A stretch of 64,000 nucleotides of DNA from a virus, in the IMG/VR virus record IMGVR_UViG_3300045988_176357, positions 64,001 through 128,000 of that record. One strand, written 5' to 3'. The notes beneath the pieces were generated by a model. That model searched no databases. It was not told the origin of the DNA and saw only the letters and a program-made list of their open reading frames with translations. This document shows positions 1 to 60,936 of the stretch, piece after piece (the first letter of the stretch is position 1; every line of letters starts with the position of its first letter). Both the position numbers and the translations under genes were made by a program.

Positions 1-897
1 GGCTGTGACAGCAACGGCAGCGAAGCTATGTACAAGGTAAGGAACGTTGTTCCCAGAGTGCCTGACAAAAAGAGCAAGTTCCGCAAGATCATACTCCAGT
101 CCGGCAGAACACTCATCACATCACCGTGCCACAAGTGGTACATATACAAAGACGACAAGTTCAACCTTGTTCCTGCTTCGTAGCTCAAACAGGGCATGCT
201 TGTTCCAAGAACAGTGTTCCAGACTGTACCTGTAAGGAGTGCAACTGTAGCAGGCAAGCCTGTCACAAGAGAGATAGCAGTCCTTATGGGAAGACTTTGC
301 GCCTCTTTGTAGGTAGTGGGAACAACTGTCAGGTTCTCTTTCGTTCGCGACAGGAACCCTGAAACAGACCAGAGACAGGACATCACAGACGCTCTTGCAC
401 AGCTCGGTGTTGTGAACTACACGATATACACGCACAAATAGCAGACCTGGTGCAACATCAAGGACTGCGTCTTCAGGGACTGGATTGCGTAGAACATCGG
501 TCGCGATTAGCAGCACAAACGCATACCGAAAAGCATGCTCTCACTCGACAGAGGCTATACGAGCATCTTCCTCGATTCCTTCTTCAAGACTCTGGATACA
601 GTCGCATAGGACATCACAGGTGACAACTGGCTGCTCAGGCTTCCCAATCCCACTGTGCGCGACGGTGTTGCGTTCATGCTCACGAAGATCGACACCGATA
701 CCAATTTCAGAGACGCAGTGCTTCCTGATCACAGAATCCACAGAGCACTGCACTTGCTTCCCATACAGAGAGGCAAGCACGATGTCATCCTGTAGCCCAT
801 TGTCAGCATAGAGGAAATGCCGACACCTGGAATGATGATCGACATCGACTGTGACGACAACGTGTACGCAGTTGCGAACGGCATCATCACACATAAC
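1..897 (+). mobile_element. Intein in RpoB (5'-partial); C-terminal splice junction ...VYAVANGIITHN|S at 895-900
   Basis: Block F/G-like DIDCDDNVYAVANGIITHN is followed by Ser and then rpoB extein resumes (SKYGTQAVPLQQRQA). The insertion lies just before the conserved QRQA region. N-terminal boundary is outside the window. Confidence 0.6.
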
Positions 898-3800
898 AGC
901 AAGTACGGAACACAGGCAGTCCCTCTCCAGTAGCGTTAGGCTCCTTTTGTTCGCGCACTTGACTAGCAGTCCGGATAGGACATGCCTACGAGACTCGGAA
1001 GACTCCTCGGCACACAGTGGGCATAGAAGCCAGGTATGGTGAAAGCTGTTCGCAAGGACAGAATCGACATGCTGTACGACGACGGCACGAAGGGATCAGT
1101 GTATCTGTACGACAACTTCCCTGCCAATGCGAAGGGCTGGCTGACCAACTACGTGAAGGTCAAGGCCGGTGACAAGGTTGCTAAGGGGCAGCTGCTGGCG
1201 TCTTCCAACTACACTGACGACAACGGCGTTGCAGCTACAGGCAGGAACCTGCGTGTAGGCTACATGAGCTATCATGGCGCGACGTATGAGGATGCCTGTG
1301 CACTGTCGTAGTCGGCTGCGAAGAAGATGGGCTACACGATCATGTACAAGACAGGCATGGACAAGGACAAGTCCATCCGTACGTCCAAGCAGCTGTACAA
1401 CACCTGGAAGCCAGGACAGTACACAAAGTAGCAGCTGTAGAAGCTGGACGATTTCGGCGTGGTCAAGCCGGGCACTGTTTTGCAACCTGGCGACCCGATG
1501 ATCCTTGGTATCCGAACTACTGAGCCCTCGCCCGGCACACTTGGCAAGAGGATCCTCACCGATGTTACCTAGACATGGTAGCACAGCACACCGGGCACAG
1601 TCACGGACGTGACGAATACCAAGAGCGGCATCAAGGTGTACGCTACCGTCAGCAAGCCACTGTAGGTAGGTGACAAGATGTGCTACGATGAGTAGACGTA
1701 GGTACTGACAGCTGATGGCTGGAAGCGTTTTGCTCAACTCACATTGCATGACAAAGTGTACACGCTCGATCCTGATTCCGATACCATATAGCTGCAGCAC
1801 CCTGTGATGGTACACAGATACAGACATAAGGATCCGATGTACAAGCTCTGCACAAGAGACATCGACCTTATGGTCACTCCCAACCACAGGAACCTTGTCA
1901 GGATACATGCCGCACAGGGACCTGCCAAGTATCGGCTGGTGCAGGCAAGTGAGCATTATGGCGAGCTGCTGTAGATGCGTACAGGTGCGGAAGGTGCTCG
2001 CCGGGATGTGCCCGTGAACTACGCTGCGGACGACGTGTAGCAGTGGGTCGCCTACGACGGCTACGTGTACTGTGCCACTGTGTAGAAGTACCATACGCTG
2101 TACGTGCGCAGGAACGGCAAGGCAGTATGGTCAGGCAACTCTGGCTTCTAGGGCTCCAAAGGCACGGTCGCACAGGTCATCCCTGACGACAAGATGCCGA
2201 GGGACTCGCAGGGCAGGCCGCTGTAGCTGCTGTTCGACCCGCTTGGAATCATCAGTCGCACAAATCCCTCGCAGCTCATGCAGGCAGGACTCGGCAAAGT
2301 GGCAGCCAAGACAGGCAAGCCCATAGTGATGCCTCAGTTCATGCCCAAGGGACAATCAAGGCTCAAGTATGTCAAGGACCTCATGAAGAAGAACAATGTT
2401 CCATGGTCCTAGGACGTGTACGATCCGTAGTCAGGGCGCACAATCAAGAACGTCTTCACAGGCGTCGCCTACTACATGCCTCTCAAGCACCTTGCATAGT
2501 CCAAGATGAGTGCACGAGGCACTGAAGGGTACGATGCATCAGGTGTGCCGAAGTCCGGTGGTGAGCATGGAAGCAAGAAAATAGGACAGCTGTAGAGCAG
2601 CGCTCTGGTCGGACACGACGCCTTCGACTTCCTCACTCAGGACGCCAAGCTCATACGCGGCCAGTCCAACGCCGACTTCTGGCGCTCCATTCGCACAGGC
2701 CAGATACCTGTCGTCCCGGGCTAGCCTCTCGTGCACAAGAAGTTCTTCGCGCACCTGCAGGCTTCTGGACTCAACGTCCGCAGATCCAAGTAGGGCGTCT
2801 CTCTGTTCGCACTCTCCACAAAGGACGTGGACGACATGGCAGGCAACAGATAGCTCAAGTCAACAGACACATACGAGCAGAAGAACTTCAGACCCATCGA
2901 CGGCGGTCTCTTCGGACAGGACATCTTCGGACCCGACGGCATGAACTGGGGCTACATTCAGCTCGACAGCCCTCTCCCGAACCCCGTCATGTAGTAGCCG
3001 CTTGCGCGTCTCCTGCGCATGTCCGACAAGGACTTCCAGGCAGTCGCTCAGGGCAGAGCCACGGTCAATGGCATCTCCAACGCAACATAGATGAAACAGG
3101 CGCTGGCAAAGATCGACCTGTAGAAGGAAGCCCAGCAGTCGCTCGTATAGCTCAAGGATGCACGGCCCTCAAAGAAGGACGCTGCGCTGAAGCGCTATGT
3201 AGCCATTGCCAAGATGCGCGACAACGGTGTTCCTCCTCAGGACTACATGCTGGACAGAATACCGGTGCTGCCTCCCAAGTTCCGCCCGATCACACAGCAC
3301 GGCGGTCTCACAATGGTAGCAGACAGCAACTACCTGTATGCGCAGCTGCTGAACGCAAGGGACGACCTGCGCTAGGCACAGAAAGAAGGACTGCCCGCTG
3401 AGTACATCACCGACGCGAACGCGAAGCTTTACACGAAGTGGAAGGAACTGGTGGGGCTGTACGACCCATAGGACGTGAAGCTGAAGAACAAGTCGGTGAA
3501 GGGCCTGCTGAAGTGGGCCCTCGGCACGAGTCCCAAGCGCTCGGCGTTCGCCACGAAGGTGCTGGGGTCGACGGTGGACACTGTGGGACGCGGAGTCATT
3601 GTTCCCAGTACTAAATTACGATTGAATGAGATCGGGATGCCGGTGGACATGGCGTGGGATGTATATGCGCCTTTTGTGGTGCGCAAGCTGGTGCAGCGGA
3701 ACTACACACCTGTGGACGCCATGAAGATGGTCAAGTAGCGTGTGCCTGCGGCGTTCGATGCACTGCAGCAGGCGGTGAGCGAGCGGCCTGTGGTCATGAA

Positions 3801-5889
3801 CCGCGCTCCCTCGCTGCACAAGCTCAGTCTCATGGGCTTCAATGTGAGGCTGACAAGCGGCAAAGCTATCAAGATCAACCCCTCAATTGTTGTCCCGTAC
3901 GGAGCTGACTTTGACGGAGACTCATGTAAGTCGTTGATAATCATATGGTTACAACAAAAATAGGGCTCTCAGGTAGCAAAAAAGATATATAGAGGCAGTT
4001 AGAATTGGCACTTGACAAATGCGAAATCTGGTGTATATTACCTTCATAATGACAAGGAGCCGCAGCTCCAGAACCAACAATAGAAAGAAGGTAATACAAT
4101 GATTTCCAAAAATGAAAAAGTCTCAGTGATGCCGTATCTTATGGAACTCTCTGAAGTTCCTGTCATCAAAGGATCGGAAGTTGCCAAGTCGCCTACTGTC
4201 ACCGAATGGGATGTTGAGGAAGGCACTTTGGTGAACACCATAGACCCTGCTACAGGTGAGATTGTGTTTGCTCCCATGACAAAGGTATCCAGGCACACAA
4301 ACCTGAAAATGTTCGACGTGAAGTTCGGTATCAGCGGAGCCTATGAGCACATGTCCACAGTGTCTGAGGATCACAGCTTGATCACATATAACAGCACATC
4401 TATGGAACTGGAAAAGACCAGACCTGAAGAAGCCCTCGGCGCATGTGTTCCGATGACCAGATTCAACTGGTGCAACAAGGTTAACGATGAGCAGGGATGT
4501 GCAACTCATATCAACTTCCCGTCTGGTAACTACTCACTGTCCTACGATATGGGTGTCTTCTTTGGCCTCATGGTCGGTGACGGTTGGGTAGCCAGCACAA
4601 GTGCCAACACAAAGGTGGCCCATATCGCTTGCTGCGAAGAGTCCCTGCAGAACTACATATTGGAACTGACAAAGAGCGCGTCTATGCCGTTCACCAAACA
4701 GGCGGCACTATTCAGCTATGCAGCGGATGAACAGAGATTCAGCCAGCGAGACAAGCAGAGATTCACTATCTACATGGATAACGAAGATAAGGCGTTCCTT
4801 GAGAAGCTCATAGGTCATGGTGCCGAGAACAAACATATCCCCTATAAGAGCTTCATGGGAAGCATAGCACACATGATTGGCGTCCTTATGGGTCTGCTTG
4901 CTACAGATGGCGCGGTATCACATACGCCTGGAAGCGGAAACAGAAAGTCAGCTAAGAAAGCTATCATTTACCACACTGTAAGTCCTACACTGAGAGATGG
5001 AGTGCAGGATTTGGCATGCAGGCTTGGTATAAAGACAAGTGTCACGACATACACTGGCACATCTTCTGGAAACACAGCATATGCAATTGTGTTCTCACTT
5101 GAGGACTTTGCTAGACTGTACGATAAGAATCCGACAAGATGTGTGATACCTGTCAGCTATAAGCAGGAAGCTCTTATGCGTATCGTTAACGATGTGCATG
5201 AGAACAATAAAGCGTCGTGCAAGACCACCGTCACTTCTTATGATATAGTGCCGTTCCCTCGCGGACTGTTCTGCGAGTTCAGCTGGGCAAAGATTGTCGA
5301 CATCTCAAGAGACAGTGTCATAGCTGCACGTACCAAAGGCTTCATAAAGAGAAGCGTCGCAAAGCGTATTGCAGATGCTCTTGAGCGTCGCGACTGGTCT
5401 ATCTACAAAGATCCTGCATACCTCAAGAAAGCTGACCAGACGCATCGCACTCCCGCCCAGGCCAAGGCACTTGTGGACAAGTGGATCGCCATGGTACGCA
5501 ACGACGACATCGGCTGGGAAGTCGTGACAGACGTGACTCCGTCCACATGCACTGAGGGATGGGACTGCACAGTGCCTGGACCGTACACCTTCTCGCTCAG
5601 CACAGGAACTATTGTGCAGGACACCGTGAACCTGCACGTGCCTGTTTCACAGGCCGGTATCCGCGACGTGCGCTAGAAGATGATGCCCGAGCACAATCTG
5701 ATCTCAGCGAGAAAGCGCAAGATATTATACGCACCGTAGAAAGCTTATACGCAGGGACTCTATGTAGCCACAAGAATGGGTGAGGCCAAGGACGTGAAGA
5801 CCTTCAACACGCTGCAGGAAGCCAAAGACGCCTACAGAAAAGGCCTCATCGACGTGGATACACCGATACTGATCAAGGAGAAGCGATGA
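1..5889 (+). CDS. rpoB-rpoC: RNA polymerase beta (C-terminal two-thirds, 5'-partial) fused in frame to beta' N-terminal half; TAG read as sense; ends at TGA 5887-5889
   Basis: Frame 1 has no TAA/TGA from nt 1 to 5886 but about 60 in-frame TAGs. Translation matches bacterial RpoB: SKYGTQAVPLQ-Q-R-Q-APFVRA (QRQA motif, both Q encoded by TAG), MSYHGATYEDA (MPWNGYNFEDS), KPLQVGDKM...SGFQGSKGTVAQV (GDKMAGRHGNKGV), LLFDPLGIISRTNPSQLMQAGLG, AYYMPLKHLAQSKMSARG, RPIDGGLFGQDIFGP. It continues without a stop into beta': IPVLPPKFRPI, NRAPSLHKLS, PYGADFDGD, and after the insertion LHVPVSQAGIRDVR...GLYVATRM...AYRKGLIDVDTPILIKEKR. Confidence 0.85.
1681..2139 (+). mobile_element. Mini-intein (153 aa, no endonuclease domain) in RpoB between GDKM and SGFQGSKG
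   Basis: Starts CYDEQTQVLTADGWKRF (Hint block A); block B DLMVTPNHRNLV; block F/G GYVYCATVQKYHTLYVRRNGKAVWSGN followed by +1 Ser. Flanking exteins reconstitute the RpoB motif GDKM|SGFQGSKG. Confidence 0.8.
3922..5622 (+). mobile_element. In-frame intein-like insertion with double LAGLIDADG homing-endonuclease motifs in beta' at the NADFDGD catalytic loop; exact splice junctions uncertain
   Basis: Same frame as flanking rpoC when the three TAGs at 3961, 4000 and 4081 are read through. Hint block B-like TVSEDHSLIT. LAGLIDADG-like motifs GLMVGDGWVAS and MGLLATDGAVS. Extein resumes TVNLHVPVSQ, matching QMAVHVPLS after DGD. Junction residues (S or C at the start, D or N at the end) are non-canonical. 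Confidence 0.55.
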
Positions 5890-6218
5890 CATACGCACAG
5901 GCATACGGACTCACCAAGCAGGCTAACACATAGCAGACTGCGGATAGCGCATTGCAGGATGCCTTCAACCTCGGCGGCCGAATGGGAGGCGCTGTCGGTG
6001 GAGGCACTGCAGGACTTGTAGGCGGAGGTCTTGCAGGCGCCGCGCTTGGGTACAATTTGCCTGACTGGTTCAGCAAGGCACAGAAAGCGGGCAAGCTGAA
6101 CAAGATTCTGGCTGCACTGGGCGGCGGTGTGCTCGGCGCAGGTGCAGGTCTGGTTGCCGGTGCTCATGGCGGTCACTGGATGGGCGGCCGCATCATGGAC
6201 GCAATCTCGAAGCAGTAA
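5886..6218 (+). CDS. Gly/Ala-rich glycine-zipper small protein; ATG overlaps rpoC-N stop (ATGA)
   Basis: ORF MTYAQAYGLTKQANTQQTADSALQDAFNLGGRMGGAVGGGTAGLVGGGLAGAALGYNL...ALGGGVLGAGAGLVAGAHGG, two TAGs, TAA stop. Confidence 0.5.
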
Positions 6219-6278
6219 CGTGCAGCTGGGCCGTACAACTAAGAATCGAAGAACATATACCTAGCAGTTGATGGCATA

Positions 6279-6971
6279 ATGCGTACCTACACACAGATAT
6301 ACAAGCAAGCCAGAGATCTGAGAGATGCAGCAAAAGACGCCCGATGGCGTGCTTAGCTGAAGCACTTTGTGGATACCCTTCCGGATCTGTCACTTATGCA
6401 TCCTGATCTGACTCCGCAGCAGTACGCCGCCAAGGTGAAAGCTTCTCCGCCAGTTCCTTTACAGCCTTTCTCAGCTAAAGTTCTGCGTCCCTATTCCAGT
6501 GCTGCCGGTACTTACAAGCAGAACTTACAGAATGCAGCCATAAATGCCCTTGCGCAGACATAGTCCAGTAATAACAGGTTCGCCGTATCTGCTCCCGATA
6601 GGAAAGGCAGACAAGCTGTTGGAACATACCAGATACGTAGGCCAGCATTGGAACAGCTGAAGAAATGGAAGCTTGTTAAGCCGCATGTTACACAATAGGA
6701 TATTCTGTATGATGCATAGCTGAACAAGACACTAGGACCGCAGTACTTTCAGCGTATAAGTAAAGGCAGCCCATCTCCAGCTGTAGCCTATGCAAGATAC
6801 TTCAGAGGGCCTAATGCATATAAGAATGCTCTGAACAGAGGCTAGCTGCCAAAGGGAACCACGGAATAGGCATGGGCAAATAAGTTCAAGTAGGTACAGA
6901 GATACATGCAGAACTATAACAGGTAGCTGAAGCGCATTCCGGCAACCTCGAAAGGACCTGTGCAGCGATGA
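6279..6971 (+). CDS. Hypothetical protein, weak lysozyme / lytic-transglycosylase-like motifs
   Basis: Frame 0 open 6243-6971 with 9 TAGs. GTYQIRRPALEQL...YDAQLNKTLGPQYF...AVAYARYFRGPNAYKNAL. No catalytic Glu identified. Confidence 0.3.
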
Positions 6972-8272
6972 TCCCAGGGCTCCCCGACAGGCGCAACTAC
7001 GGTGACCTCGCGTCGCTGAAGCCATAGCAGACGTACACATTGCTGCGGCAGCTGCACAATGCACAGCGTGCCGGACGGCACGTGGACTTCCGCATAGGTT
7101 CTCCGTAGCTTGGTCTGTTCAGCTGGGCAGCACCTAAAGACCTTCCGACGCAGGCAGGCCAGAAACGGCTCCTCATATCGCAGCCTCTGCACACGTACGC
7201 ATACAAGGACTTCACAGGTCCCATCTATTCAGCTTATGGGCGTGGCACTGTATAGAAGCTTTAGTAGACGCCTATAGTCATCCTGCAGAACAGCCCTGAC
7301 AAGATCAAGTTCACACGCGCCGACAAGCGCAACGCGCCGGTGTACACAATGATCCGCACGCGCAACGGCAACTGGCTCACGTCCATCGTCAGCGACGACG
7401 CGCCGCCTGTCATCAGGCAGTACGACAAGTAGCACTTCAAAAGCATCTCACTGCAGCAGGCAGCCAATCTACTGGACCTTGGCGCTCAGGCCTATCCGAA
7501 GGCGGACGGCACAGGAGCACTCGCACAGGTGCGCAAGAACAGCATATAGGTGTACGGGATCCGCAAGGACAAGAACGGAAATCTGATACGATACACAGAC
7601 CACATAGGCGGACTCAGGGACATGAAGATCCCTCCGCAGCTTGTAGGCAAGGTATTCCGTGTAGAGGTCACAGGTTAGCAGAATGGCAGACCCATACAGC
7701 CCAATACTCTCTCAGGACTGCTCAATGCTTCTCTGCAGAGGAACATACAGGCACGCAAAGACAATAACATCAATCTGTTCATGTATGCACTTGCTCTTGC
7801 AGACAAGCAGGATCAATATGACAAACAGCAAGTTAACGAGCTTGTCTCCCAGCTGCAGTCTCCGAAGCTGCGTACATTGCCGAAGGTAACAGCACAGTAG
7901 TTCCAGGATCAGCTCAGACAGATGCGTGAGGGTACACATCCCATAACTCAGTAGGGCTTCATAATCCATCCCAAAGGTGGAAGACCGCTCAAAGCTAAAT
8001 TGCTGCAGGATGCAGATGTCATAGTACGTGATATATTCCCTGCATAGACACAGGATGGACAACGCGCAGGAGGATTCACGTACAGCTTGCCTGGACAGTA
8101 GACTGTTGTAGGCAGAGTAGGCACCGGTTTTACACATCAGCAGCTGCAGGATATGCTGCAGCATCCATAGCAATACACAGGCAGGACAGCAAAGATACAT
8201 GCGATGTCTCAGTATCCTTCAGGTGCATACAGAGCTCCTGCCTTCATATCTTTCAGAGCGGAAGGAGATTAA
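6968..8272 (+). CDS. ATP-dependent ligase-like nucleotidyltransferase
   Basis: Frame 2, ATGA overlap with upstream stop, about 20 TAGs. Motif I AYPKADGTGA (KxDG); NINLFMYALALAD; QGFIIHPKGG (motif IV-like); RPLKAKLL (motif V-like); PAFISFRAEGD (motif VI-like). Confidence 0.5.
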
Positions 8273-8617
8273 ATGCCCATTCATCAGAACGAAGACGGTA
8301 CCTGGCAGTGGGGCAAGTCAGGTAAGAAATACAAGAACAAGCAGGACGCAATAAAACAGATGCAGGCTATCTTCGCTTCCGGTTACAGAGAACCTGGGCA
8401 ACGCAAGAAAGCCGGGCTTACCTACATGTCTGCGTACCTGATTAAAAGAGCTGGTGGCGGTTCCTTCCAGGACTACATGAACTCCAATATTCCTGTGGAA
8501 AATGTGGAGCAGAGTCCGCAAAACAATGTGAAACAGGAACCTGAGAAACCTGCACAACAGCCGCCGACCCAGCAGCTTAACAGGCTTACGGGAATCTCTT
8601 TCTAGGAAATCAAATAA
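8273..8617 (+). CDS. Small hypothetical protein (MPIHQNEDGTWQWGKSGKKYKNKQDAIKQMQAIFASGY...)
   Basis: ATG immediately after ligase TAA; one TAG read-through at 8606 extends it to TAA 8615-8617. Confidence 0.5.
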
Positions 8618-8630
8618 GGACCTTATTAAT

Positions 8631-8969
8631 ATGACTTACATCGAAGCCTACAATATGTATAAGCAGGCTGCTCAGGTGAATGCTCCTGCTGCACATCCTT
8701 CTGTAACACCATCCGTTGCCACGAAACCTGCATTTGGTCAGTCGTATGTTAACGGCGGTTCAAAAATGCCTGACCTGCCGGGCACACGTACAGCAGTCAA
8801 AGGTGATACACCGTATCTGTACTGGACGCAGCTCGGCGGGAATAAACATATGCCGTGGCAAAAATGGCTGGGTCAGTTTCTGAAGGATAATCAGCTGAAA
8901 GCGGACGCCAAAGGCAGAGTTCTCCTGAAGCCAGGTCAGAACTATATGCTTGGCCCTGGAATTGAATAA
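8631..8969 (+). CDS. Hypothetical protein (112 aa)
   Basis: Standard ORF without TAG, TAA stop. Confidence 0.45.
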   Translation: MTYIEAYNMYKQAAQVNAPAAHPSVTPSVATKPAFGQSYVNGGSKMPDLPGTRTAVKGDTPYLYWTQLGGNKHMPWQKWLGQFLKDNQLKADAKGRVLLKPGQNYMLGPGIE

Positions 8970-8980
8970 TTGGAGTGACT

Positions 8981-9832
8981 ATGAGCTTTAAAGACATTTT
9001 CAAAGATATGAACAAGCAGGCGGCTTCGATGCTGACACCTTAGGCCATGCAGGCAGCGGCTGTGCCGCCTGAAGGTACTCCGCCTGCAGGTGCACCTATG
9101 GGAGGTGCTCCGATGGATCCGTCTATGATGGGTGCTCCGGCCGGTATGCCTGTGGATCCGGCGATGGCAGGCGCTGCTCCTGCAGGTGCTCCAATGGATC
9201 CGGCAATGATGGGTGGAGCTCCTATGGGGCCTGGACCTGATCCTGCCGGTGCGCCTGGAATGCCTGGAGCATCCGGAGCGTGGATGACTGATCCGATGTT
9301 CCTTGACTTCCTTATGCAGTCAGGTTTCCAGATCGATCAGGTTGGCAACGTAATCGATCCTAATGGACAGCCTATGGATCCTGCTATAATGGATCAGCTC
9401 TACGCTTAGTTTCAGGCACAGATGGGTGGAGCACAGCCAGACGTACAGGGAGCTCCCGCTGAAGGTGCACCTGCATAGCAGCCGCCGATGGAGCTGCCTT
9501 AGGAAGTGCTCAATCAGGTTGCAGGAATTGTGCAGGATGTTATCGACAGCTCTCTGGATGAGAAACTTTCCGCACTGGAGAAGAAGATATCTGCTTTCGC
9601 ATAGAAGCTCGATACCTTGAAGACCATGCTGGACGATATCCTTATCGGTAACACCAACCAGGATTCGCTTAACAAGTCCTAGGAAGCTTCCATTGACTCA
9701 CAGCTGTAGAAAGATCTGCGTTCAGCACAGCAGGTGGATGTGCAGTAGCCTGGAGGAACAGAACAGCTGCTTGCACCTGCTGCGGCTGTTCCTGCGTCCG
9801 GCAGCATATTGTAGCTTATGAGAGGTGCTTGA
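8981..9832 (+). CDS. Pro/Ala/Met/Gly tandem-repeat protein with coiled-coil-like C-terminus
   Basis: Frame 2 checked codon by codon. Repeats GAPMGGAPMDPSMMGAPAGMPVDPAMAGAAPAGAPMDPAMMGGAPMGPGPDPAGAPGMPGASGAWM, 14 TAGs, TGA stop. Confidence 0.6.
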
Positions 9833-14791: not shown

Positions 14792-14856
14792 AAGGTAACC
14801 AGCGACGGACAGTAGATTTCCATATCCGGTGCCAAATCCAATCCGGCTGACAGAAT

Positions 14857-15375: not shown

Positions 15376-15465
15376 ATAGCTCACGATTTTCCTCAAGCTC
15401 AGAGGTCTCAACAATGGAGAAGCTCCTGATGCAGGAGATCTGCAGACAGGAACTATGATGAACTG

Positions 15466-21333: not shown

Positions 21334-21345
21334 AGGAGCGCACAA

Positions 21346-21750: not shown

Positions 21751-21763
21751 AAAGGAAACTATT

Positions 21764-41069: not shown

Positions 41070-41080
41070 TGAGGTTTAAG

Positions 41081-41913: not shown

Positions 41914-41930
41914 AAGTTTATCAGGTATGC

Positions 41931-50300: not shown

Positions 50301-50599
50301 AAGACGTACGCAATAGTCATTGTACAACTTCATATAGACGCCTATAGAATCCAATTAGGTAGTATATACAAACACATAGGTAGGAAAATATATACAGAAC
50401 ATCAATGGGACTCAGACGCAGAACCTGAACATAACAAGTGTATGCGAGCAGATATCTGTTACAGGACCCGTTGCTGTTGGAGACTCTGTCTATGTGATCT
50501 ATGTCTCATCCAATCCGGGCTTCCCTACATGCGCCTAGTATGACAGTGATTCCTTGTCATCTACTGGAAGCTGATCTGCAATAAACAAAAGAGGTAATA

Positions 50600-51370
50600 A
50601 TGAACATTCTTAATGCAGATACGCAGCAGGTGCGGACATTTTCGAAATATCCGTTCGATTAGGCTTCCACTATGCAGATATATAACTACATAGTAAAATC
50701 TACGTGGATACCATCTGTAGGTATTTGTGTATAGCAGGCTAGATTCCCTCTATATATAAGCGGTTTTACACACAACAGCGCCACTACATGCAAGTTACAT
50801 ATAAGTGACAATACAGCTACTGAAATAGCTTATGCCGTACTGTACAGATAGCGCAGTACGGCCCAGACAGCAGGTATATAGAGTGCCGATAAAGTTGTAG
50901 CTTCGCTAGTGGATGTATATGGACATGTCTGTGGGCAATTAATGTATGATGTATAGTTTTCCGGATTCATTCTGAATGTGCTTACTACGGAGCATCTCGG
51001 ATAGATAGCACTGAGCGCGAACAACCTCATACTGTCTCCATAGTGTATAACATGTACACATACAGTGGGGTGTAAACAGGTCATATTTAATGGAAAATAC
51101 AAATATAAAGGGAGTACAACTCTGATTTTCCAGCGCAATGTGACACTCACCGACAGCGGAATACTATCAACACCGTCTATAAATGTGTATGGGGATAAAG
51201 ATACCACAGATGTATCCGCCATTGCATATCAGGCACCGAAGTACCTCAAATATGTGAACGGTAAAGACCTGTCTGGCAGCCATGTGCTGATTAAACCGAT
51301 TGCTCTTTCAGATCTTCGAGTGATAACCAACACAGGAACTATAACGTTCTCAGGGGTACGGAATGCTTGA
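50600..51370 (+). CDS. Tail fiber-like protein (about 257 aa)
   Basis: GAGG 8 nt upstream of the ATG; frame 2 joins to track ORF 51065..51370 (..TGTITFSGVRNA); read by eye. Confidence 0.3.
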
Positions 51371-53522
51371 TAAACTGTACAATATATCTGCTGTATATCC
51401 ATTCTATAACCATACTGGATTGTCTGATACAGACAGACAGACAGCCGGATGTATAGCTTGCTGCAGAATATAGATACGAAAACCGAGACTCAGGCAATTT
51501 TTAGCAGGCTAGGATTACTACAAACCTATTCAGGATACAAATATTCCGACGCAGATAGTTCTTGAAAGAACAGAACCGGGCAAGGCTGTATTTAAAGTGC
51601 AATACGGTTACTATGAGTAGCCGTGGTACATAACATGGACAAGGGATGGGACTTGCTCAGGCACTTTTCTTGTTTCATGCTATATGTAGCTGACAGCTTA
51701 GCTGCCTACATATACAGGCAGCTCTTTAATTCTCCTTAATTAGTGCATGATAATCAGAACGCCTGGAGTAGTGCTGCATGCCGCATCGGATGGAATCCAA
51801 TAGACAGGCGGGATATATCCTAACCAGACCATGTATACGAATGTCAAAGGTTTCTGTGACGGATATAACTGTCAGGTAAGTGCATAGGATTCCAATTTGA
51901 TTATACTGTCGTCGGCTGCAGCAGGTAAAGGGAGACCTAAATACAATGATGTGTGGGGTTCAGACTCACAGGAGTCTTAGTTACCAGCGGAAGCTCCGAC
52001 AGGTGTGCGCACTATAAACACAAGCACGGGAAGCGTAACTTTTCTATCTATAGGCGATGTAACGCAGAACGTTGTTGTTACTTAGTAGGATGACGAAGTT
52101 ACAACTACAGTACAATTAAGTATCTGAGCTTATATGAAACACCTTAAGAAAGACAGATGCGGATGGAAAGAGTATTAGTGTGTAGGCATTAAAGACCTGT
52201 TCTCCGACTCTATATCCATATGCTGTGACACGACAAATTATGATTAGACTGGCGGGTAGAGATAGAACGACTATAACTACCTGAATCTGCCTGTATCTTT
52301 TTAGGGTGTAGTCAACATAGTTCCATTTGCCAACCTGTAGTCACTTGGAGGTGGCGTCGGATGTATATCCAGCTACGATCCGATGGGGGACGGCTTGCAG
52401 GACTGGTTTGACAAAGTCAGTAAAAATTCTGACTACATAGCGGCATATGGTAACTTCAGAGCTTCTCTGGCTTGCTATTTTGATTCTTAGAAGTAGCGTC
52501 CGGGGATAATGACACCGAAAGCTACGCTGAGTCCGTTTAACACAGCACCTTCAGTAGTTGTCCCGACGTCTTAGCTGCGTGTATAGCCTAACGTGGGCGG
52601 CGGAGGTACAAGTTCGTGGGATGGACAGAGTGCCTGCGCTAACGGGTTCGCTATAATACCGCTGGATCACAAGGGCTCTGGATATAGACTGTATGTAAGT
52701 TCAGGCGATGCTATACCTTCTGTAAATGCAAACGGATAGGCTGTATCCTATTACGTAGAAGGAAGATATCCGGAGGGATAGGGTGCTAGATATAAGTCTG
52801 ATCTGTAGGTATACCTGACAGCCAAATATGACTTTACCACCGCAAAATGGGACTTCGGAATTGCGGTCGTGCAGCAGGATCAGGATTGGTAGACTGCTGT
52901 GGACAGATAGTAGTGGGAAAAGGTGACTCTGCTGGGCACTGTAAGTTGTGTCCGGAATGGTAACGCGAAGGTATAGACATACGTAACGCAGACAGCTTGC
53001 TCTCCTGTCGATATGCGCGACTTTGTTTCTTAGGTTCCTATGCCGTCAGGTACTGATACATCAATGTATGTATTCGCTTATCTTGGCAGCAGCAAGATAA
53101 AGAAATGGGTACAGGTAAAGGACTGTTGACTTACATGTAACTTCAGCTAGGCTTAATGAAACTAACTGAAGGAATATAACATGCCAAACTGTCCATGTCC
53201 GTAGTTCGACATTTAGAAGTACAAAGATAAGCCTTACTAGGAAACTCCTTGTGCCAAGTGTTTCCTGTCAAAGTAGACTACCAACACACATAAACACTCA
53301 TAGCTGTTCGACACAGACGGTGTGTAGTCTCAGCAACCTGTCAAACGTCCGTAGCCTGTGTAGATATAGGATATCCTTCCTGAAAAAATTTCTCCTGACA
53401 CGTTGGCTATAATCGTATAGGCGTGTCAGCAGAACTTTATTCTTACACTCAGCAATCTGGTGCTCAAACTTACACGTCTGTCCAAGACATATCCTGTACT
53501 GTTTTAGATTCTCACATACAAG

Positions 53523-53892
53523 ATGCAGCATCCATAGATGTCTTACTTCGAGATAGGCAGGAAGCTTAATCCGCCGTGCTCAAAGCAGAACGTGCTGTAT
53601 CACCTGTCGCACGCTGTCAGATAGTTCCCTCAACTGGAGAAGAGCATTGTTACAGATACAAGGTTCTCAGGAGGAAGATACGCACTGAAGACCATAGCAT
53701 AGCTGGCATCCAGGATCAAGCAGGTGTAGATCGTGCGGCGTAAATTATACGAGCAGAACTAGTACAACACACGTAAAGAGTTCGACGAACTGAAGAGATA
53801 GCTGTAGAGACCATATAAGGTTAACATCATCAGCGAGTTCGACAGCTATCTTCATGAATCCGACAGCGGAGACGACAATGTTAAGAGCAGAT
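53523..53892 (+). CDS. Hypothetical protein (about 123 aa)
   Basis: Frame 0, TGA stop. Confidence 0.3.
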
Positions 53893-54981
53893 GAATAGGT
53901 ATTCAAACTTAATGATTCAAGAGTTAAGGCACTGTCAACAGGTAAGCTGACTGTAGCTGCACTTGCATATACTATCAAACCTGGAGACTACATGATACTG
54001 TACAAGAATACAGTATATGCACTGACAGAAGACTAGTACTATGCCGCTCAACAGATGGACATGTAGAAGTATCTGACAAAAGAAGCATTCTAGCAGGTAC
54101 TCAAATAGGATATAGACAAGCTCGATACAGTAGACAGGAAAGCCGCATAGAGAATCAAGAACAGCAAGACCAATTGTTCCACCTGCCAGTACAACTCGTA
54201 CAAGACTCAGCTGCTCAGAATCATGCAGAAGTATCCATGGCTGCTCAGCAAGTACAATCTTGTGAAGATAAAGCGCCAGATACGGCAATACCCATAGGTA
54301 TCGTAGCCTGTTATATCGAAGGTAAGCGCTCTGTTCCCTACGTTCTTCCAGAAAGTTGAATACGACAGGAAACCGTGTCTTGACTGCGTGTAGAAGCACA
54401 TAGGCATGGCGTACATAAAAGGATGCTAGGCGCAACAGGGCTATCCTGAGCATCTTGTACTTGCAGTAGCTAATTTGCAGGAAGCATATGAGGAATGCCC
54501 TAAGGACTGCTCCGCTATAAGAGAGATGCTGCTGTTCTGCATAGGCAAGACAAAGATCGAGAACAAAGCGTTTATTCCGCTGGATAATCTCCTGTATCTT
54601 ATATAGATAGCCAGACAGGAAACAAGCATGTCGTAGGCTCTGGATAAGAATAAAGCGGATTAGTCGTTCGACCTGTAGCTCGATTAGCAGATGAAGCAGG
54701 AACTTGCAGAGATTCCTGTGCTTAAGAAGCTGGATATAATGAACGAACTTAAGGCGCTCATTGCACTTGAGTACAGCAACAAAGACCACATATCTGTCAA
54801 GTATCAGGGATACATGGGCAGTCTTGCAGACATGATATTGCCGTTTTCTGTGAAGGTAAGTAATCTGATCAGGAACAGGCGCCTTATGTTCAAGGCGTGT
54901 CCGTAGTTAGTGCGTCAGACTGAGTATGATTGCAAAGATTTACAGGAAGCGTTGAAGAGTCCGATGGCGAAAAAGGACTGA
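53878..54981 (+). CDS. Cys-rich hypothetical protein (about 367 aa)
   Basis: Frame 1 checked line by line 53794-54981; motifs CSTCQY, KPCLDCVQKH, ECPKDCSAIREML. Confidence 0.4.
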
Positions 54982-55815
54982 TCTACTACAGAATATCAAA
55001 TTCCATGCCGTAGATGCACATTGTTCCGCTGTTGCTTGTATCGGACTGTGATTCAGAGCTCTAACTGTAGCTTATGCTGTAGCTGGAGCTCTGTGACTAT
55101 GAACCTGACAATGACTGCGAATATGACACAGAGTCGGAGCACGCTGTTCCTGTTGTAAACTAAAAGGCAGTGGCCTGTGCAGAGTTCAGATAGTTCAGAG
55201 CTTTAACAAGCGCTGTTACACCTGTCTTTATTCCGTTTATAGCATGCTGAGCCTGGAAGTCGTTACGAACTCTGAGCTTTATACTGTCTGTGCGGAAATA
55301 CGCGTAATCATCCATAATCTCGGACGGATAATCCTACATATCCACAGGATCTGCAATATGACTGAATCTGTAGTCAGGCTACTTATTGAAGTTCTTCGGC
55401 AGCTTCTATATTACAAAAACATTTGTATCTACGTTACAGGCGGAGGTTGCTTTGCATTCAATATCAACAGCCGCCTTATATCCTGATCGCTGATATCTTT
55501 TGACACTGAAGTGCAGAGTTATGTTCATTGCTGCTCCGTAAATGTGACGCCGCCAATTGTAATTGGCAATTTGAAATTCTATTTAAGAAAAGCATTAAAG
55601 GCTTTATTATATTGTAAGCGCAAAGCAGCTGCTTTCAGTATAGTATGCTTATTTACCTGTTTATGCGGGCACGTTGGACAGCCCTTGATAGCGGCTGACG
55701 CAGCTGCCATAAGAGGGAAGGACTTTAAGTCCATATTGAGTAATTTTTGCTAATCAGGTGTTAAAAACATTTTGCGCTCCTTATGAGCTGGGCGCGTTCA
55801 ACTGGAAAGAATAGA

Positions 55816-56712
55816 ATGGGAACATTGAGTAAAGACTGTTACGCGTATCCTGCCAAGGAACTCTATCCTATACACACCAAATAGGCTGCGCTTAATTCTT
55901 ACAAAGAGTTCTAGCACGATATTGATAAGTATTCAATTGACAGCATCAAGATGATTGCAGCCAATTTCATAAAAGCTGCGTCTGTACACGACATCAAATA
56001 TCCTTGTGCACAGGCTGCGAAATCCAGACAGTGTGTAGACATATAGCTGGATAACGGCGCTGTAGTGTCTATGACCAAAATATAGAACTTGCAAGATGCG
56101 GATAAAGCTGTAGCCATGCTGGATCAGATCAGAGACAACATTGAGCTTAAATCTCTCAGAAAGGTTGCGAGGTATATTGTCAATGAATGTGAGAAACTCA
56201 GCCTGTATCCTACTGACAGCATAAAGCTTCATAAGTACGCTGGTTTTGGTCTTGGCAATGCCTAGTAGATGGCTGCATAGTTCCGCAAGCGCGGTACGCT
56301 CATACTGTTGCCTGAAAGCATCAAATCATAGTTCTATCAGGCATATAGAAACCTTGATCAGCAGGATGCATAGACCATGTACAAGCAATCTGCAGCTATT
56401 TGCGATATGCTTGATGGTATCGACAGACTGTATAAGCTCGAATCTCATTACGGTAACGAAATCAGTAAACCGTAGGATGTGTGCTTTTCGTAGACACTCG
56501 ATACTATGATCAAGTAGGCTTCTGACTATCTCGGAGTCGAGTCGACATCTACCATTCTATCCAAAAAGGCTCTACTACAGGACAAATAGAAAGTAGCCAA
56601 ATTCTTTGCTGATAAATACGGCGCGTAGATAAAAGATGACAATGATATGCTGAATAAGGTAGCGACACTGTCTTCAACCGGAATAAAAGCACTCATAAAG
56701 GAACTTGAATGA
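55816..56712 (+). CDS. Hypothetical protein (298 aa)
   Basis: Frame 1 checked line by line, 23 TAGs, TGA stop. Confidence 0.5.
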
Positions 56713-57359
56713 ACCTATTCTAGCGCAAAGACTGTATGGTTCCTGTATATGCTCTTGCTGCTGTATCCAAGTTTCAGTAGTAGGCTGTAAACTGGGACCC
56801 TCTGGTACTGCGCGACGCATTTTAGGCTCAGTTCAACTGCAAACTGTCACAGCGCGGTTTTGACAAGCTGATGGCAGGTACGTCCATGATAGGTACAAAC
56901 CTGTTCACAGCATCCATATAGAGCTTTTTAGCCTGTACTGCAGCTTGTGCCAACAGAAGCATACAGTCATCACAGCTGAACTATGTATCTCTGAAAGAAT
57001 GCTGTTGGTCTGTATTCGTGTACAAAGATATGATCGGATACAACCAGCAGGAACAGCAAGATCAGTTCGATCCGGATATAGTGATGTATATACAGGGCCT
57101 TATGGATATATAGGGTATATCCAAACTACCTTCATACATGTCCTTTGTCTAGCTGCCGACGTAGAGGATGGCGACTATATAGCAGGCTCTGGTAGGTGAC
57201 GTCACATCGTTCTAGGCCTACAACACAAGGCAGCTGAACTAGATGCAGGATATAAATGCCTACGTGATGCAGATGCAGGCAGATCTTGTATAGCAGCTGA
57301 AGCTGTTGGATCCTATTATACACTGAATTATTCTCAAAGGGAAAAGTGTGTATTTTCCT

Positions 57360-58450
57360 TTGAAAATAGCTAAAAAATGACCACTTTTTTGGCATAATAA
57401 TATGGAGAAGCTTTTAGAGCTTTTCTATGGATGGACTTATCCATCCGGTTTCACGGTGCTGTATTGAGGTCGACTTATGTTGACTGTCAATACAGCACCA
57501 TTCGAATTTGTGACTATTGTTTTCTGTTACCCTGCTTAAATTTTTACTTAGTAGTCGTATATGCATCAGCTACTGTTGCTCGCTGGTAAATTACAACCTA
57601 AGTAAGTTTAGCTACGATGTGAACAAGAAGCTGCTACGGCTTCGATTTGTAGAAGGACCGCCGCGTGTCCGTTACTGATTTCCACTGGAAATTTCATAAG
57701 CGATCTGCCTCTCGTGGTTACGAAGGCCAGATCGCACCTGAAATTACCAAAGAAAATACAAGACATCGTTATCTGAGCATGCAGTTGTTACAACTGCTGT
57801 AAACACATACTAATGGTGGTATGTGATCATATTTCCTGGTACTAGGTATTATGTACCAGGAAATCGATAGATATACAGGTGAACAGTTCGACAAGCAGTC
57901 GGCTGGATATGTCACACTATTTTATTTATGCGGATTCTGTTGCTCTTGTGTCTTGGTTCATTTTAATATTCAATAGACTTCGTATCAGTTACTGATACAC
58001 TTAGAGACCATGTGAGACACATATGTGTGTCTATTACCCTCAGCATACCTCCAGAGTGATACTCTGGAGGTTAACTTTAGGGTAATAAAAGTATTGAATA
58101 TGTTGCCAACAGATGACTAGTACGTGAAATAGAAGTCGTTGCGACTTCGCATCGGATTTGATAAATACCTTATCAAACAAATGAACGGCTGAGAGGCGAC
58201 CCGCCAGGCCCAATTGAGGCACTTGGCTACAGCCAAGTGACCACAAGTGGGCATCGGCGTACGCCTCCCGCCTATCGTTGAGACGTTAAAGCCTGAATCT
58301 ACAATCGTTACGATTGCTTGTATGCTGGCTAGGACAGTATATATGTTATAATTGGAAGGATCATGCTATTATTGATCCTTCCAATTTTAGAGGCGATGAC
58401 TAGTTTATTTATTTGGTAAAACAGATGCACACTAACACGTTACGTGTTAT
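57360..58450. other. Noncoding region of about 1.1 kb, dense in stable hairpins and inverted repeats
   Basis: No long frame free of TAA/TGA. Hairpins include GGATGGACTTATCCATCC, GGTGCTGTATTGA...TCAATACAGCACC (13 bp), TTTCCTGGTAC...GTACCAGGAAA (11 bp), CCTCCAGAG-TGATA-CTCTGGAGG nested in TTACCCT/AGGGTAA, AATTGGAAGGATCA-TGCTATTAT-TGATCCTTCCAATT (14 bp). Confidence 0.5.
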
Positions 58451-59118
58451 TTTACAGCATACAATGGACAACGTTGTATCGCGGTATGTTCTTACTTATG
58501 AAGCCTGCGGCGAGCGCAAAACTCTGCTGTCTATCGACGCAGACTTCAGCGCACCGACGCAGCTTCAGAACTAAGAACAGATCAGATCTGTAAATAAAGC
58601 TGAACTCGAGTCCGTTACGGATTCACAAATGTGTATTACTCAATGCGTGATACACAACAATCCTGGTGCTGCATGGAGCACCTCCGAACAGCACCAGGAT
58701 TCAGAGCTTATACCCCAACACAGCTAAAGCTTTCTCAAGCTAAGCTATAAACTTGGCATCAGGAACAACAGAATTCGCAAACCCTCCAAGCCCGTCCCAC
58801 TGTCCTGCAAGACGCTGTTTAACAGCCTATCTTATCCGCACACCAAGATCCTACAGAACCAGTTTGATCTATTGGCTCTGCACATGGAAGCCTTTCTGCT
58901 CCCATCTGACCCAAATCGGGTACCACCTTGCAAACCGCTTGCATGCGGTAGGCAGAGGATATATAGTATCCCTTCTTCCCTATTTGCCGCGCAACACAAC
59001 GTTGCCGTTTATTGACTAGAGTCTTCTGACCTAGTCAAAAGTGAACTTAGCGTGACTCATAGACTAGTACTGCGTTGCTTCTTTTTTTAGCCTATAGTCA
59101 TTGTTACTGTCAAGTTTA

Positions 59119-60936
59119 ATAACTTTCATATACATCCTCCTATGGGTCTATTACAACAGGGTGACTGGAGACGGCCTGCACGAACTGACTGAACTAGGAT
59201 CTTGGACTGAAGTTCTGATACTAAGCGGCCAGCACAGAAGTGTCGAACTTCTAGCCCAGCACAGGAAATATTCCGAACTTATGCCATAAGGCTGAGCAGG
59301 CAAAGTTGACGGCATGTGCAAAGTCATCAGGCACACCTGGTTTCTTGCCTATGAAGACAACTGTCCTGTTGCCTATATACGCTCTTGGATCCTACTTAAG
59401 CGCAAGAAAGTCATAGGCAAGCTAAGTCTTATCCTATACATTGAACTTCATTATACGTACAGACGTATCTTTCAGCGCCTGCACAATAAGAGCAAGACTT
59501 CTGGACTTGTCTATTGTATAGTTATAATAGTCAGCCTGCTGCTGAGCTTTGTCGTAGCTTATGATGTCGCCTTTCTTAGGTCCGGTATATGTGAACGGAA
59601 CAGGATACGTGCTTGTGAGCAGCAATCCTCGCTGCTTCATGATCTACATGCGCACAAAACCCGCACCACCGTTATCGTGTGCAAATATATCAGGATGCAG
59701 GATATCTATCCATTGCATCAGCTACTAGGCCTGCTATGTCGGCGTCGTTCCTTTAGGGTATCTCTTGCCGAACAATATATCTATGCGGTCTGTATCCGTT
59801 CGCAACCCTGCTACACACGCAGTTGTGAACGACTATGATACAGCGCCCCCTCCGTCCCAGTCTACACCTATGACTATGCATCTGTACATGTGCCTGATAC
59901 CGAGTATATCCTGTACTGAAGCGATGTTGTAGTCATGTTGGGCTGCAACAAGATCACGCAATGTCAGAGGATTGACTGACTAGTCATACGGCCAGCCGAA
60001 AACTTCATTGTACACACGCAGCTTGGAATAACTGTCGACTTTAGCCAGAAGGTCGTACCATTTTCTAGGTTCATTGGTAGCCTAGTCGATCGTAAGATGC
60101 AGCGGATGTATCGGCTGCCCTATATGGTAGCCTGGGAAAGTGAACTGTCTCTAAGGTACGGCATGTACGAAGCCTCCGTTATGTGGAAACACAGTGCGCC
60201 CACACCTGGAACACACAAGGCCGTTCTTTCCGAGCATTCCAAGAAGATCGTGCTATGGATTGGGTATATTGAAATGGTTGCAGTGTGTGCATCTTATTAT
60301 CCACTATGCCTGCGATGACTTATCCCACAGGATACCGCAAGTAGTATCTGTCGTAGTCGGAGTACCCGCATACATGGAATACCCGTGCCGCAGGTTGGCC
60401 GACATAACCTCACGTATGACAGGCACGAAACTGAAATCCACGTCGGCAAGCTCGTCTATGACTATCTGTGAGCATCCGGACAGGCCTCGCAGAGCATCTG
60501 CGTTGGCGTAAGCGGTGCCCAGATACATGAACGAGCCGACATTGAACTGCTTCAGCAGAGTTTTGCTGAGCTATACTTTTTTGATAAGAGATCCGCATAT
60601 CGGACTGGACTCAAGCAGAGGTTTCAGAATGGTAGTGTGATATCGTGTCCTCTGTTCATCTCTTGGTTCGATATGAAGTATATCATAAAACGGTATCAGA
60701 CTGGAACGCAGTACAGACGACTAGGCTATCTGATAGGTCTTACCGACCTGTCGTCCAGTCATCCATACCTGCTATCTAGGATATATAGTGTTGAACATGG
60801 GTGCGAACTGATAGTGCAGATCCAATGTCAGAGGTTTCCCCTTAAGAGAGAAGATACTCAACAGTGGAATGAACGTCCTCAGTTTGTCCTAGGCGATAGC
60901 ATTCAAACACGATTTAACAGCATCAATTAAAGTCAT
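59119..60936 (-). CDS. terL: Large terminase subunit (605 aa), TAG-recoded on the minus strand
   Basis: Reverse-strand frame free of TAA/TGA with 16 CTA (antisense TAG). Walker A MTGRQVGKTY (T4 gp17-type RQxGKT); Walker B QIVIDELADV; nuclease motif CIVIGVDWDGGGA; stop TAA (rc of 59116-59118). Confidence 0.75.

Follow-up and report, generated by a model that had tools for sequence, protein, structure and literature searches.

The DNA analysed here (the window) comprises 64,000 nucleotides, positions 64,001 to 128,000 of the IMG/VR virus record IMGVR_UViG_3300045988_176357, with a GC content of 47%. It appears to derive from a tailed phage that encodes an RNA polymerase (RNAP) of cellular type, in which beta and the N-terminal part of beta' are joined in one protein and a separate gene specifies the rest of beta', its C-terminal part. 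An earlier reading made from the letters alone (the sequence-only reading) had called this polymerase bacterial, and its profile matches do place it with the cellular beta/beta' enzymes (Pfam Rpb2_6, 1.5e-36; Rpb1_2, 8e-22; Rpb1_5, 4e-8). Bacterial RpoB structures match the beta part at an E value of 1e-35, and the fused protein is a member of a large metagenomic family of 1,450 to 1,590 amino acids (aa). Alongside the polymerase genes lie capsid genes, a long array of presumed tail and baseplate genes, the gene for the terminase subunit TerL and a predicted amber suppressor tRNA gene (Table 1). Over positions 1 to 60936, TAG is a sense codon on both strands. Judged from the comparisons described below, we believe that in the polymerase and virion genes it predominantly stands for glutamate, with a probability of roughly 0.8.

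Table 1. Features of the window (GAR, GAA plus GAG; a slash within a motif marks an intein junction)
Feature	Position	Strand	Remarks
RNAP beta/beta' N-terminal fusion	1-5889, open at window start	+	Pfam Rpb2_6, Rpb1_1, Rpb1_2; 46 TAG; ends TGA
Intein 1, in beta part, cut by window start	1-897	+	Pfam Intein_splicing; ends ...THN/S; 7 TAG
Mini-intein 2, in GDKM/SG of beta	1681-2139	+	C...SGN/S; 6 TAG, 4 GAR
Intein 3, LAGLIDADG homing endonuclease	3922-5622	+	Pfam LAGLIDADG_3, Hom_end
SLT-domain lytic transglycosylase	6279-6971	+	Pfam SLT 5e-8; TAG aligns with E of AWNESKN in EtgA, 8urn_A (weak, E = 0.09)
RNAP beta' C-terminal part	11010-13319	+	Rpb1_5; 35 TAG
Mini-intein in beta' C-terminal gene	11997-12431	+	Hint
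Four conserved TAG-rich genes	13316-15466, 15466-16350, 16354-18087, 18099-20027	+	115 TAG in total; syntenic with standard-code relatives
Intein in 18099-20027	18321-18746	+	Hint
Capsid block, TAG-poor	20078-24309	+	Scaffold-like, 194-aa, major head and 262-aa proteins
Major head protein	22405-23418	+	phrog_2522; 1 TAG versus 18 GAR
GIY-YIG homing-endonuclease gene, free-standing	25631-26089	-	Pfam GIY-YIG 1.4e-8; 6 TAG
Amber suppressor tRNA gene, anticodon CUA	26597-26924	-	ARAGORN, introns allowed
Suppressor, 5' exon	26924-26891	-
Suppressor, intron	26890-26639	-	252 nt, after U35
Suppressor, 3' exon	26638-26597	-	CCA encoded
tRNA-Met(CAU)	26932-27007	-	Adjoins suppressor; G1.A72 mismatch at acceptor-stem top
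About 30 packed TAG-rich genes, presumably tail/baseplate	27929-57326	+	TAG/(TAG+GAR) 0.5-0.95
TerL, GpA-type ATPase	59116-60936	-	21 TAG; ends TAA
Start of TAG-free block with normal Glu content	60973-64000	+	In a relative, at least 7 kb more, with SbcC/Rad50-like ATPase and SF2 helicase

The sense reading of TAG follows from stop-codon counts and from the tiling of open reading frames (ORFs). The frame of the polymerase fusion holds 46 TAG and neither TAA nor TGA across 1,963 codons, where base composition would predict 57.6 TAA plus TGA (probability of none, about 1e-25). Under code 11, greedy nonoverlapping ORFs span 57% of the window with a median length of 94 aa and both strands mixed; with TAG as sense they span 96%, with a median of 238 aa and 92% on the plus strand. 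Setting TGA or TAA as sense gave no comparable gain in ORF tiling over the whole window, and per-frame stop counts revealed no in-frame TAA in coding frames, so that these two codons are ruled out as additional sense codons. The called genes contain 730 in-frame TAG in 20,830 codons. Among the 71 genes, 43 terminate with TGA and 28 with TAA, a split that follows from the ORF definition; it is supported by the ORFs abutting tightly end to end. On the minus strand, TAG is found within TerL and the GIY-YIG gene as well as in 58701-59135 (8 TAG). The right boundary at 60936 is correct, since TAG is nearly missing from 60973-64000 and, in a close relative, from 7 kb or more of the adjoining sequence; TAG-poor stretches within the recoded part are the capsid block and the intein at 3922-5622. 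The sense reading of UAG is thus confirmed for both strands of 1-60936, with TAA and TGA as the only stops. The sequence-only reading had claimed as much and holds on each of these points, including ORF lengths under table 15 versus table 11, termination of all genes by TAA or TGA, and the lack of long frames that need read-through of TAA or TGA. It was right that individual genes carry many TAG, but its counts were approximate: about 60, 50 and 16 for the polymerase fusion, the C-terminal beta' gene and TerL, which contain 46, 35 and 21.

To assign an amino acid, the fused polymerase (RpoBC) was stripped of its inteins, and the resulting 943-aa query, with its 30 TAG entered as X, was aligned with 117 standard-code homologues. 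This homologue set has a normal Glu and Gln content, and three members that were checked translate correctly with table 11. In the TAG columns the homologues carry E in 39%, D in 15% and Q in 5%, and the summed log-odds are +42.3 for E, -1.5 for D and -7.8 for Q. The same procedure recovered the proper residue for every control codon (GAG, GAA, CAG, GAC, GAT, AAG, AAC, TAC, TGG, CTG, CAC and others), and the TAG profile is close to that of GAG (E 37%, D 13%, Q 8%). Likewise, for TerL, encoded on the opposite strand and aligned with 106 standard-type homologues, the TAG log-odds are +21.6 for E and -6.6 for D, with Q outside the top three. When seven window genes were compared with their counterparts in three standard-code syntenic relatives (L005-L007, fetched through their RpoBC), TAG faced E 150, D 54 and Q 13 times out of 385, and E was far above Q in each of the seven genes. 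The tabulation of residues facing TAG in RpoB, RpoC and TerL, which the sequence-only reading had put forward as a check on its assignment to glutamine, therefore returns Glu, not Gln.

The same conclusion is suggested by strongly conserved columns of RpoBC and TerL, with GAR as in Table 1 and CAR for CAA plus CAG. Columns with at least 90% Glu in the homologues are written TAG in seven cases, GAR in four and CAR in none; those with at least 90% Gln are never TAG or GAR and are CAR in five cases, all of them CAG. At a threshold of 50% the corresponding counts are 15 TAG, 5 GAR and 3 CAR for Glu and 0, 1 and 9 for Gln (TAG versus CAR, Fisher p = 4.7e-5). Four TerL columns (122, 211, 431 and 515) with Glu in more than 90% of the homologues are all TAG in the window, as is the invariant second Glu of the GEME motif of RpoB. 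The SLT lytic transglycosylase, whose Pfam score was obtained with Glu entered for TAG, has TAG (6561-6563) at the catalytic Glu of its ES motif, on a residue alignment that is itself weak (Table 1). The two motifs that had been cited in favor of Gln fare differently. For the supposed QRQA motif of RpoB, the codons cag-TAG-cgt-TAG-gct do stand exactly at 928-942, but the motif match is a misalignment by six residues: when solved bacterial RNA polymerases are aligned with the window protein, RQAVP corresponds to T-Q-A-V-P at 910-924, whose Q is written CAG. The Q-TAG-R-TAG-A segment, six residues downstream, aligns with VRREAP of Firmicutes RpoB, and the second TAG of 931-939 (TAG-cgt-TAG) faces Glu there and in 106 of the 117 family members. 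The L-TAG-VGDKM example is sound, in that Gln is the commonest residue opposite this TAG (Q 44, E 27, K 14, R 14), but it is the sole such column in RpoBC.

Codon composition is consistent with this picture. TAG-rich genes contain 1 to 2% GAR, 4 to 6% TAG and 4 to 8% CAR, and TAG-free genes and one intein contain 5 to 13% GAR, about 0% TAG and 3 to 5% CAR. With TAG as Gln, the TAG-rich proteins would have about 1.5% Glu and 8 to 10% Gln; with TAG as Glu, both residues fall within the normal range. In the RpoBC extein, for instance, E plus TAG amounts to 4.8% and Q to 4.0%, and homologues at 57 to 59% identity have about 5% E and about 3.2% Q. By this count TAG replaces about 75% of Glu codons in recoded genes.

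A candidate decoder is the tRNA(CUA) gene, which was recovered only when ARAGORN was allowed introns; at default ARAGORN settings and Rfam gathering thresholds the window yields tRNA-Met only. Additional tRNAs within genes, called at lowered ARAGORN thresholds with short introns, were implausible and were ignored. Group I introns are known in the anticodon loops of bacterial tRNAs, for instance in cyanobacterial tRNA-Leu(UAA). Similar to these, the insertion lies in the anticodon loop after a U that ends the 5' exon, terminates in G and has conserved core segments that align with Rfam RF00028. The full model length is aligned, with 31 bits (E value of 5e-6 in a 701-nt search) against a gathering score of 50. 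In a relative that is 97% identical (L008, 2636-2709) this tRNA lacks the insertion and has exactly the sequence that splicing would give, which fixes the exon junction and makes gain or loss of the intron a recent event. Presence and absence in near-identical genomes is again a trait of the bacterial introns; what differs, besides the subthreshold score, is that the interrupted gene is a phage amber suppressor. Syntenic tRNA(CUA) genes are found in three more relatives (L013, L014 and L015), and that of L015 (16817-17164) has a different intron of 273 nt at the same site.

Typing this tRNA by BLAST was uninformative, the best phage matches being Asn, Arg, Trp and 'TERM/Pyl', so that signature elements alone are useful. 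By the rules established for E. coli, U11-A24, U13.G22, the absence of nucleotide 47 and G1-C72/U2-A71 are identity elements of glutamyl-tRNA synthetase (GluRS); U1-A72 is required by both glutaminyl-tRNA synthetase (GlnRS) and GatCAB. The window tRNA has U11-A24, U13.G22, G1-C72, U3-A70 and G73. In L013, 24 of the first 26 nt agree with E. coli tRNA-Glu (gltT), the whole D arm included, and the variable loop has 4 nt; the L014 tRNA has both its D and T arms in common with tRNA-Glu, as well as a variable loop of 4 nt. None of the four suppressors carries the U1-A72/G2/G3 acceptor signature of tRNA-Gln (E. coli and phage tRNA-Gln references start with UGGG), and those of the relatives have G1.U72. 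Given the tRNA-Glu-like body, which is clearer in the relatives, and the lack of the tRNA-Gln acceptor signature, charging with Glu by GluRS is the likely outcome under the published identity rules.

The two tRNA genes lie directly upstream of the GIY-YIG gene, and the three form a small minus-strand island in a plus-strand genome. GIY-YIG/SegE-like genes occur in the same region of L013 and L016, and L013 also has a tRNA similar to the tRNA-Met(CAU) of the window. Opposite the suppressor and its intron runs a TAG-free ORF of 174 aa (26286-26810, plus strand) that matches no family and is probably not a gene.

The closest relative, located through TerL, is a 95-kb IMG/VR contig (IMGVR_UViG_3300045988_177579; L001, L008 and L009) that is 96 to 97% identical to 23963-42395 and 49144-64000 of the window. 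Of the 8,970 codons that the two share, 353 are TAG in both, and TAG differs to CAG 14 times, to GAG, GAA and TAT twice each and to other codons singly. CAG/TAG exchange thus occurs at a rate of 2.0%, conservative nonsynonymous transitions at 1.5 to 2.7% (I/V, A/V and N/S, 1.5 to 2.5%), and nearly all synonymous transitions at higher rates than CAG/TAG (mostly 3 to 9%; 4.2% for the first-position change CTG/TTG). A CAG/TAG rate that looked synonymous-like over 14.5 kb (11 events, 4%) was overturned by this larger comparison. Since Glu (as TAG) and Gln (as CAG) would be a single transition apart, exchange between the two should rise, and we read the excess of CAG/TAG differences as Glu-to-Gln substitution by one transition. 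None of the three TerL changes of this kind lies in a conserved-Glu column. Purifying selection on the recoded genes is evident, with 551 synonymous versus 196 nonsynonymous differences in this pair. Two double-nucleotide GAA/TAG differences, at window positions 54700 and 54745, are only 45 nt apart in the gene at 53854-54981 and could reflect a small recombination tract or selection that keeps Glu through a codon switch.

More distant relatives show the same tendency. In L003, with an RpoBC of 66% identity, the partner of TAG is GAR in 12 cases and CAR in 7, and the few GAG and GAA codons of the window mostly face TAG. Across five further contigs from other samples (L003 and L013-L016; GC content, 40 to 48%) TAG faces E in 23 to 47%, and Q is never among the five commonest residues. 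Over the relatives, TAG at 0.8 to 3.8% of codons trades against GAR at 6.2 to 2.4%, and CAR stays at 3.7 to 4.3%; within the recoded clade the invariant-Glu columns of TerL switch between GAR and TAG. The TAG pattern is therefore a clade feature common to six related contigs. The GC content of the relatives as a whole ranges from 40 to 56%. The closest database proteins (P0001-P0003 and P0121-P0134) are poor in E and rich in Q. For P0003 (L003, 10001-14701) all 59 'extra' Gln are TAG codons in a code-15 gene-caller translation, invariant Glu positions included, and P0121-P0134, judged by composition, are likewise mistranslated.

Several observations weigh against a clean assignment to glutamate. 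The window suppressor is only partly Glu-like, with C2-G71 and a variable region of 5 to 6 nt (4 nt in tRNA-Glu), a global comparison with about 80 reference tRNAs does not set Glu apart from the other isotypes, and the four syntenic suppressors are mutually only about 50 to 70% identical. A CUA anticodon attracts GlnRS, so that some insertion of Gln is possible. CAG is the commonest replacement of TAG in the closest pair (14, versus 4 GAR), which synonymy with Gln would predict as well, and the L-TAG-VGDKM column favors Gln. The sequence-only reading had called for a search for a tRNA-Gln(CUA), release-factor or synthetase genes; this produced a tRNA(CUA), but not of tRNA-Gln type, and no release-factor, synthetase, anti-release factor 1 (RF1) or other translation-factor gene among the scanned window proteins, with about 30 genes at 32 to 57 kb unscanned. 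A further difficulty is the efficient reading that 30 to 40 UAGs per gene would demand, and the whole case is computational, built on alignments, composition and tRNA features.

Conceivably, the suppressor is charged with both Glu and Gln, by GlnRS mischarging or partial transamidation by GatCAB, resulting in ambiguous decoding. Engineered tRNA-Glu amber suppressors do insert some Gln in E. coli, where GlnRS reads C34 and U35, and the frequent and apparently tolerated CAG/TAG exchange would fit such a mixture. A sizeable fraction of Gln would be costly, however, at the catalytic and invariant Glu sites that bear TAG, and by the published identity rules G1-C72 or G1.U72 in the four suppressors argues against recognition by GatCAB or GlnRS. 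We regard mixed decoding as the main alternative, albeit an unlikely one. Decoding as Gln throughout by a tRNA-Gln-type suppressor, as in the crAss-like and Lak phages (code 15), is what the sequence-only reading had proposed. It is the sole phage TAG reassignment reported in the literature searched and the code by which gene callers already translate the relatives, and it would account for the L-TAG-VGDKM column and for CAG/TAG being the most frequent TAG change in the closest pair. Yet alignments, conserved columns and composition each point to Glu instead. Code 15 would demand the skewed composition calculated above and place Gln at near-invariant and catalytic Glu sites; TAG never occupies a conserved-Gln column, the Q log-odds are negative in RpoBC, with Q outside the top three in TerL, CAG/TAG exchange stays under the synonymous rates, and the suppressors lack the tRNA-Gln acceptor signature, two of them carrying a tRNA-Glu D arm. 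This makes it very unlikely.

Still less probable is another residue, be it Asp, pyrrolysine (for which ARAGORN's label 'Pyl' might speak) or a noncanonical acidic amino acid. Asp does come second opposite TAG (15 to 23%), and three TerL TAG columns have at least 74% Asp. The share of D is, however, the same as at GAG codons, and its log-odds of -1.5 and -6.6 contrast with +42 and +22 for E. Lys lies opposite TAG in only about 6 to 8%, and the predicted tRNA is a canonical cloverleaf with G18G19 and TTCGAAT, unlike tRNA-Pyl. That TAG is not translated at all, due to sequencing or assembly errors, base modification or a pseudogenised genome, is hardly credible. Nothing beyond the general caution due to metagenomic contigs speaks for it, and it is contradicted by an enrichment that is frame- and gene-specific, by recurrence of the pattern in independent IMG/VR, ENA and Logan assemblies of 40 to 48% GC, by the 353 conserved TAG and the predominance of synonymous differences in the closest pair, and by the presence of a matching CUA tRNA.

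Returning to glutamate as the predominant meaning of TAG, we envisage the following. About three-quarters of the Glu positions in the polymerase and virion genes would be written TAG instead of GAA or GAG, the phage tRNA(CUA) would read UAG, charged with Glu by the host GluRS, and TAA and TGA would stay stops. Host RF1 would have to be outcompeted or neutralised. The suppressor would be made after infection, and genes needed earlier would be free of TAG. In line with this, the DNA-metabolism genes to the right of 60973 are essentially TAG-free and thus translatable by the unmodified host apparatus. Within the recoded part, TAG makes up 45 to 95% of Glu codons in the polymerase genes, the genes at 13 to 20 kb and those at 28 to 57 kb, and 0 to 5% in the scaffold-like, major-head and neighboring genes (20078-24309). 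The acidic scaffold-like protein has 3 TAG versus 54 GAR, and the 262-aa protein has no TAG; the scaffold-like ORF reads through a TAG into equally acidic sequence. This distribution suggests that recoding keeps classes of genes apart in time, with TAG avoided wherever the demand on translation is highest. The heavily recoded RNAP may then be a late, virion-packaged enzyme.

It is possible, although we consider it doubtful, that UAG as Glu is the code of the whole RNAP-phage clade and that the amino acid is set by the synthetase repertoire of hosts that lack GlnRS. In such hosts, UAG as Glu would be within easy reach of a non-discriminating GluRS: tolerant at anticodon position 36, this enzyme might charge a tRNA-Glu-derived CUA suppressor, which GatCAB would then reject because of G1-C72 or G1.U72. 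The group I-like intron in the anticodon loop could possibly serve as an extra switch that times the onset of the code.

TAG-recoded code-15 phages include crAss-like, Lak, Agate and phAss-1 phages (Borges et al., 10.1101/2021.08.26.457843; PMC9523058; PMC10607447). In the crAss-like phages, TAG-to-Gln has been proved by proteomics (Peters et al., PMC9523058). Borges et al. (10.1101/2021.08.26.457843) observed only TAG-to-Gln and TGA-to-Trp in phages with a code unlike that of the host; in the Lak phage paper occasional TAG/Glu alignments were noted and Gln was still concluded. The present phage resembles these in its in-frame TAG in virion and late genes, TAA and TGA stops, a phage tRNA(CUA) that is sometimes intron-bearing, and a recoded block next to a standard-code block that holds DNA-metabolism genes. 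In contrast to them, TAG lies at Glu positions, the suppressors are tRNA-Glu-like, TAG reaches a very high density of 4 to 6% of codons, and the major capsid and scaffold genes avoid it.

Codes with UAG as Glu are found in eukaryotes, for instance in peritrich ciliates, where UAR stands for Glu (NCBI table 30). In Blastocrithidia nonstop, UAG and UAA are likewise described as Glu (PMC12153298). The eukaryotic codes share with the phage the reading of UAG as glutamate through a tRNA-Glu with a stop-cognate anticodon, but they take UAA along with UAG and are cellular and genome-wide. Here, UAG alone is reassigned, in part of a viral genome in which TAA is the stop in 28 of 71 genes, and presumably in a host that uses the standard code.

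Multi-subunit RNA-polymerase-encoding Caudovirales (mReC) have been described before (Weinheimer and Aylward 2020, PMC7481178). The window would resemble these in coming from a tailed phage with TerL and a major capsid protein, and in beta and beta' sequences that are found with cellular profiles and carry a DxDGD motif (here GADFDGD, interrupted by intein 3). It differs in the fusion of beta to the N-terminal part of beta' and in the five inteins in its genes. Alternative coding is not mentioned in the passages of that paper that were searched (PMC7481178), and the selection of mReC, which demanded that a stop codon be predicted and that X characters be absent, may have been biased against recoded members. 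The relatives of the window number in the hundreds in metagenomes, the longest of their contigs being about 235 kb.

In the literature searched, whose coverage is incomplete, we found nothing relevant on TAG/UAG-to-glutamate in phages. If true, the TAG-to-Glu assignment would thus be a code variant unreported there in viruses of bacteria, for which the reassignments described so far are TAG-to-Gln, TGA-to-Trp and, in phages that have their code in common with the host, TGA-to-Gly. The known reassignments have been explained by the ease with which GlnRS and TrpRS can be hijacked; a TAG-Glu clade would break that rule, point to GluRS as a third exploitable enzyme and provide a test case for code evolution. 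Standard-code and recoded close relatives with varying TAG shares would form a graded series in which the spread of a reassignment across a genome could be followed. Natural amber suppressors of tRNA-Glu type that efficiently read 30 to 40 sites per gene might also be possible parts for genetic-code engineering. On the practical side, code-15 pipelines would put Gln at catalytic and invariant Glu positions, and such proteins are already held in public collections (P0003; by composition, P0121-P0134). Homology searches, structure prediction and composition statistics all suffer from mistranslation of this kind.

The first 20 kb of the window contain five inteins: the beta-beta' fusion has three, and the C-terminal beta' gene and the 642-aa protein at 18099-20027 have one each. 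All are in-frame insertions that homologues lack at these conserved sites; they carry Hint or homing-endonuclease domains and have Ser, Cys or Thr at the junctions. Intein 3 splits the catalytic motif of beta' exactly (DFDGD/TVNLHVPVS) and has an unusual C terminus, VQD/T instead of HN. It contains 3 TAG versus 31 GAR, and its GC content is 47.9% versus 56% in the host gene; both features suggest a recent arrival, probably by homing from a standard-code relative.

The two RNAP genes are separated by about 5 kb (5886-10998), a spacer that is shorter in relatives and holds glycine-rich small proteins in addition to the SLT lytic transglycosylase. Also encoded there are, at 6968-8272, a protein whose N-terminal domain resembles LigD 3'-phosphoesterase and, at 8975-9832, a Pro/Ala/Met-rich protein. 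In the presumed tail region, the 667-aa protein at 30395-32398 is an exception with a TAG share of 0.27; neither this gene nor 27929-28837 has a Pfam match, and an IMG/VR search with the 667-aa protein returned the close relative only. PHROGs and Pfam gave no function for most of the small TAG-free ORFs.

As to the origin of the phage, megablast of a 20-kb portion gave no match among 50,697 phage records, and an exact 45-mer of the window had none in IMG/VR. No cultured phage is close; TerL shares about 22% identity with terminases of Bacillus phages. A TerL alignment search of species-representative genomes returned four matches, three in metagenome-assembled genomes of Lentisphaeria/Victivallales and one in Planctomycetales (L019-L022), of which L019 itself uses the standard code (TAG, 0.1%). 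This hints at a host in the PVC superphylum, a lead only, given that binning of phage contigs is unreliable. Finally, GC content is 49 to 57% over 1-24000 of the window (polymerase and capsid) versus 42 to 47% over 24000-64000 (tail).

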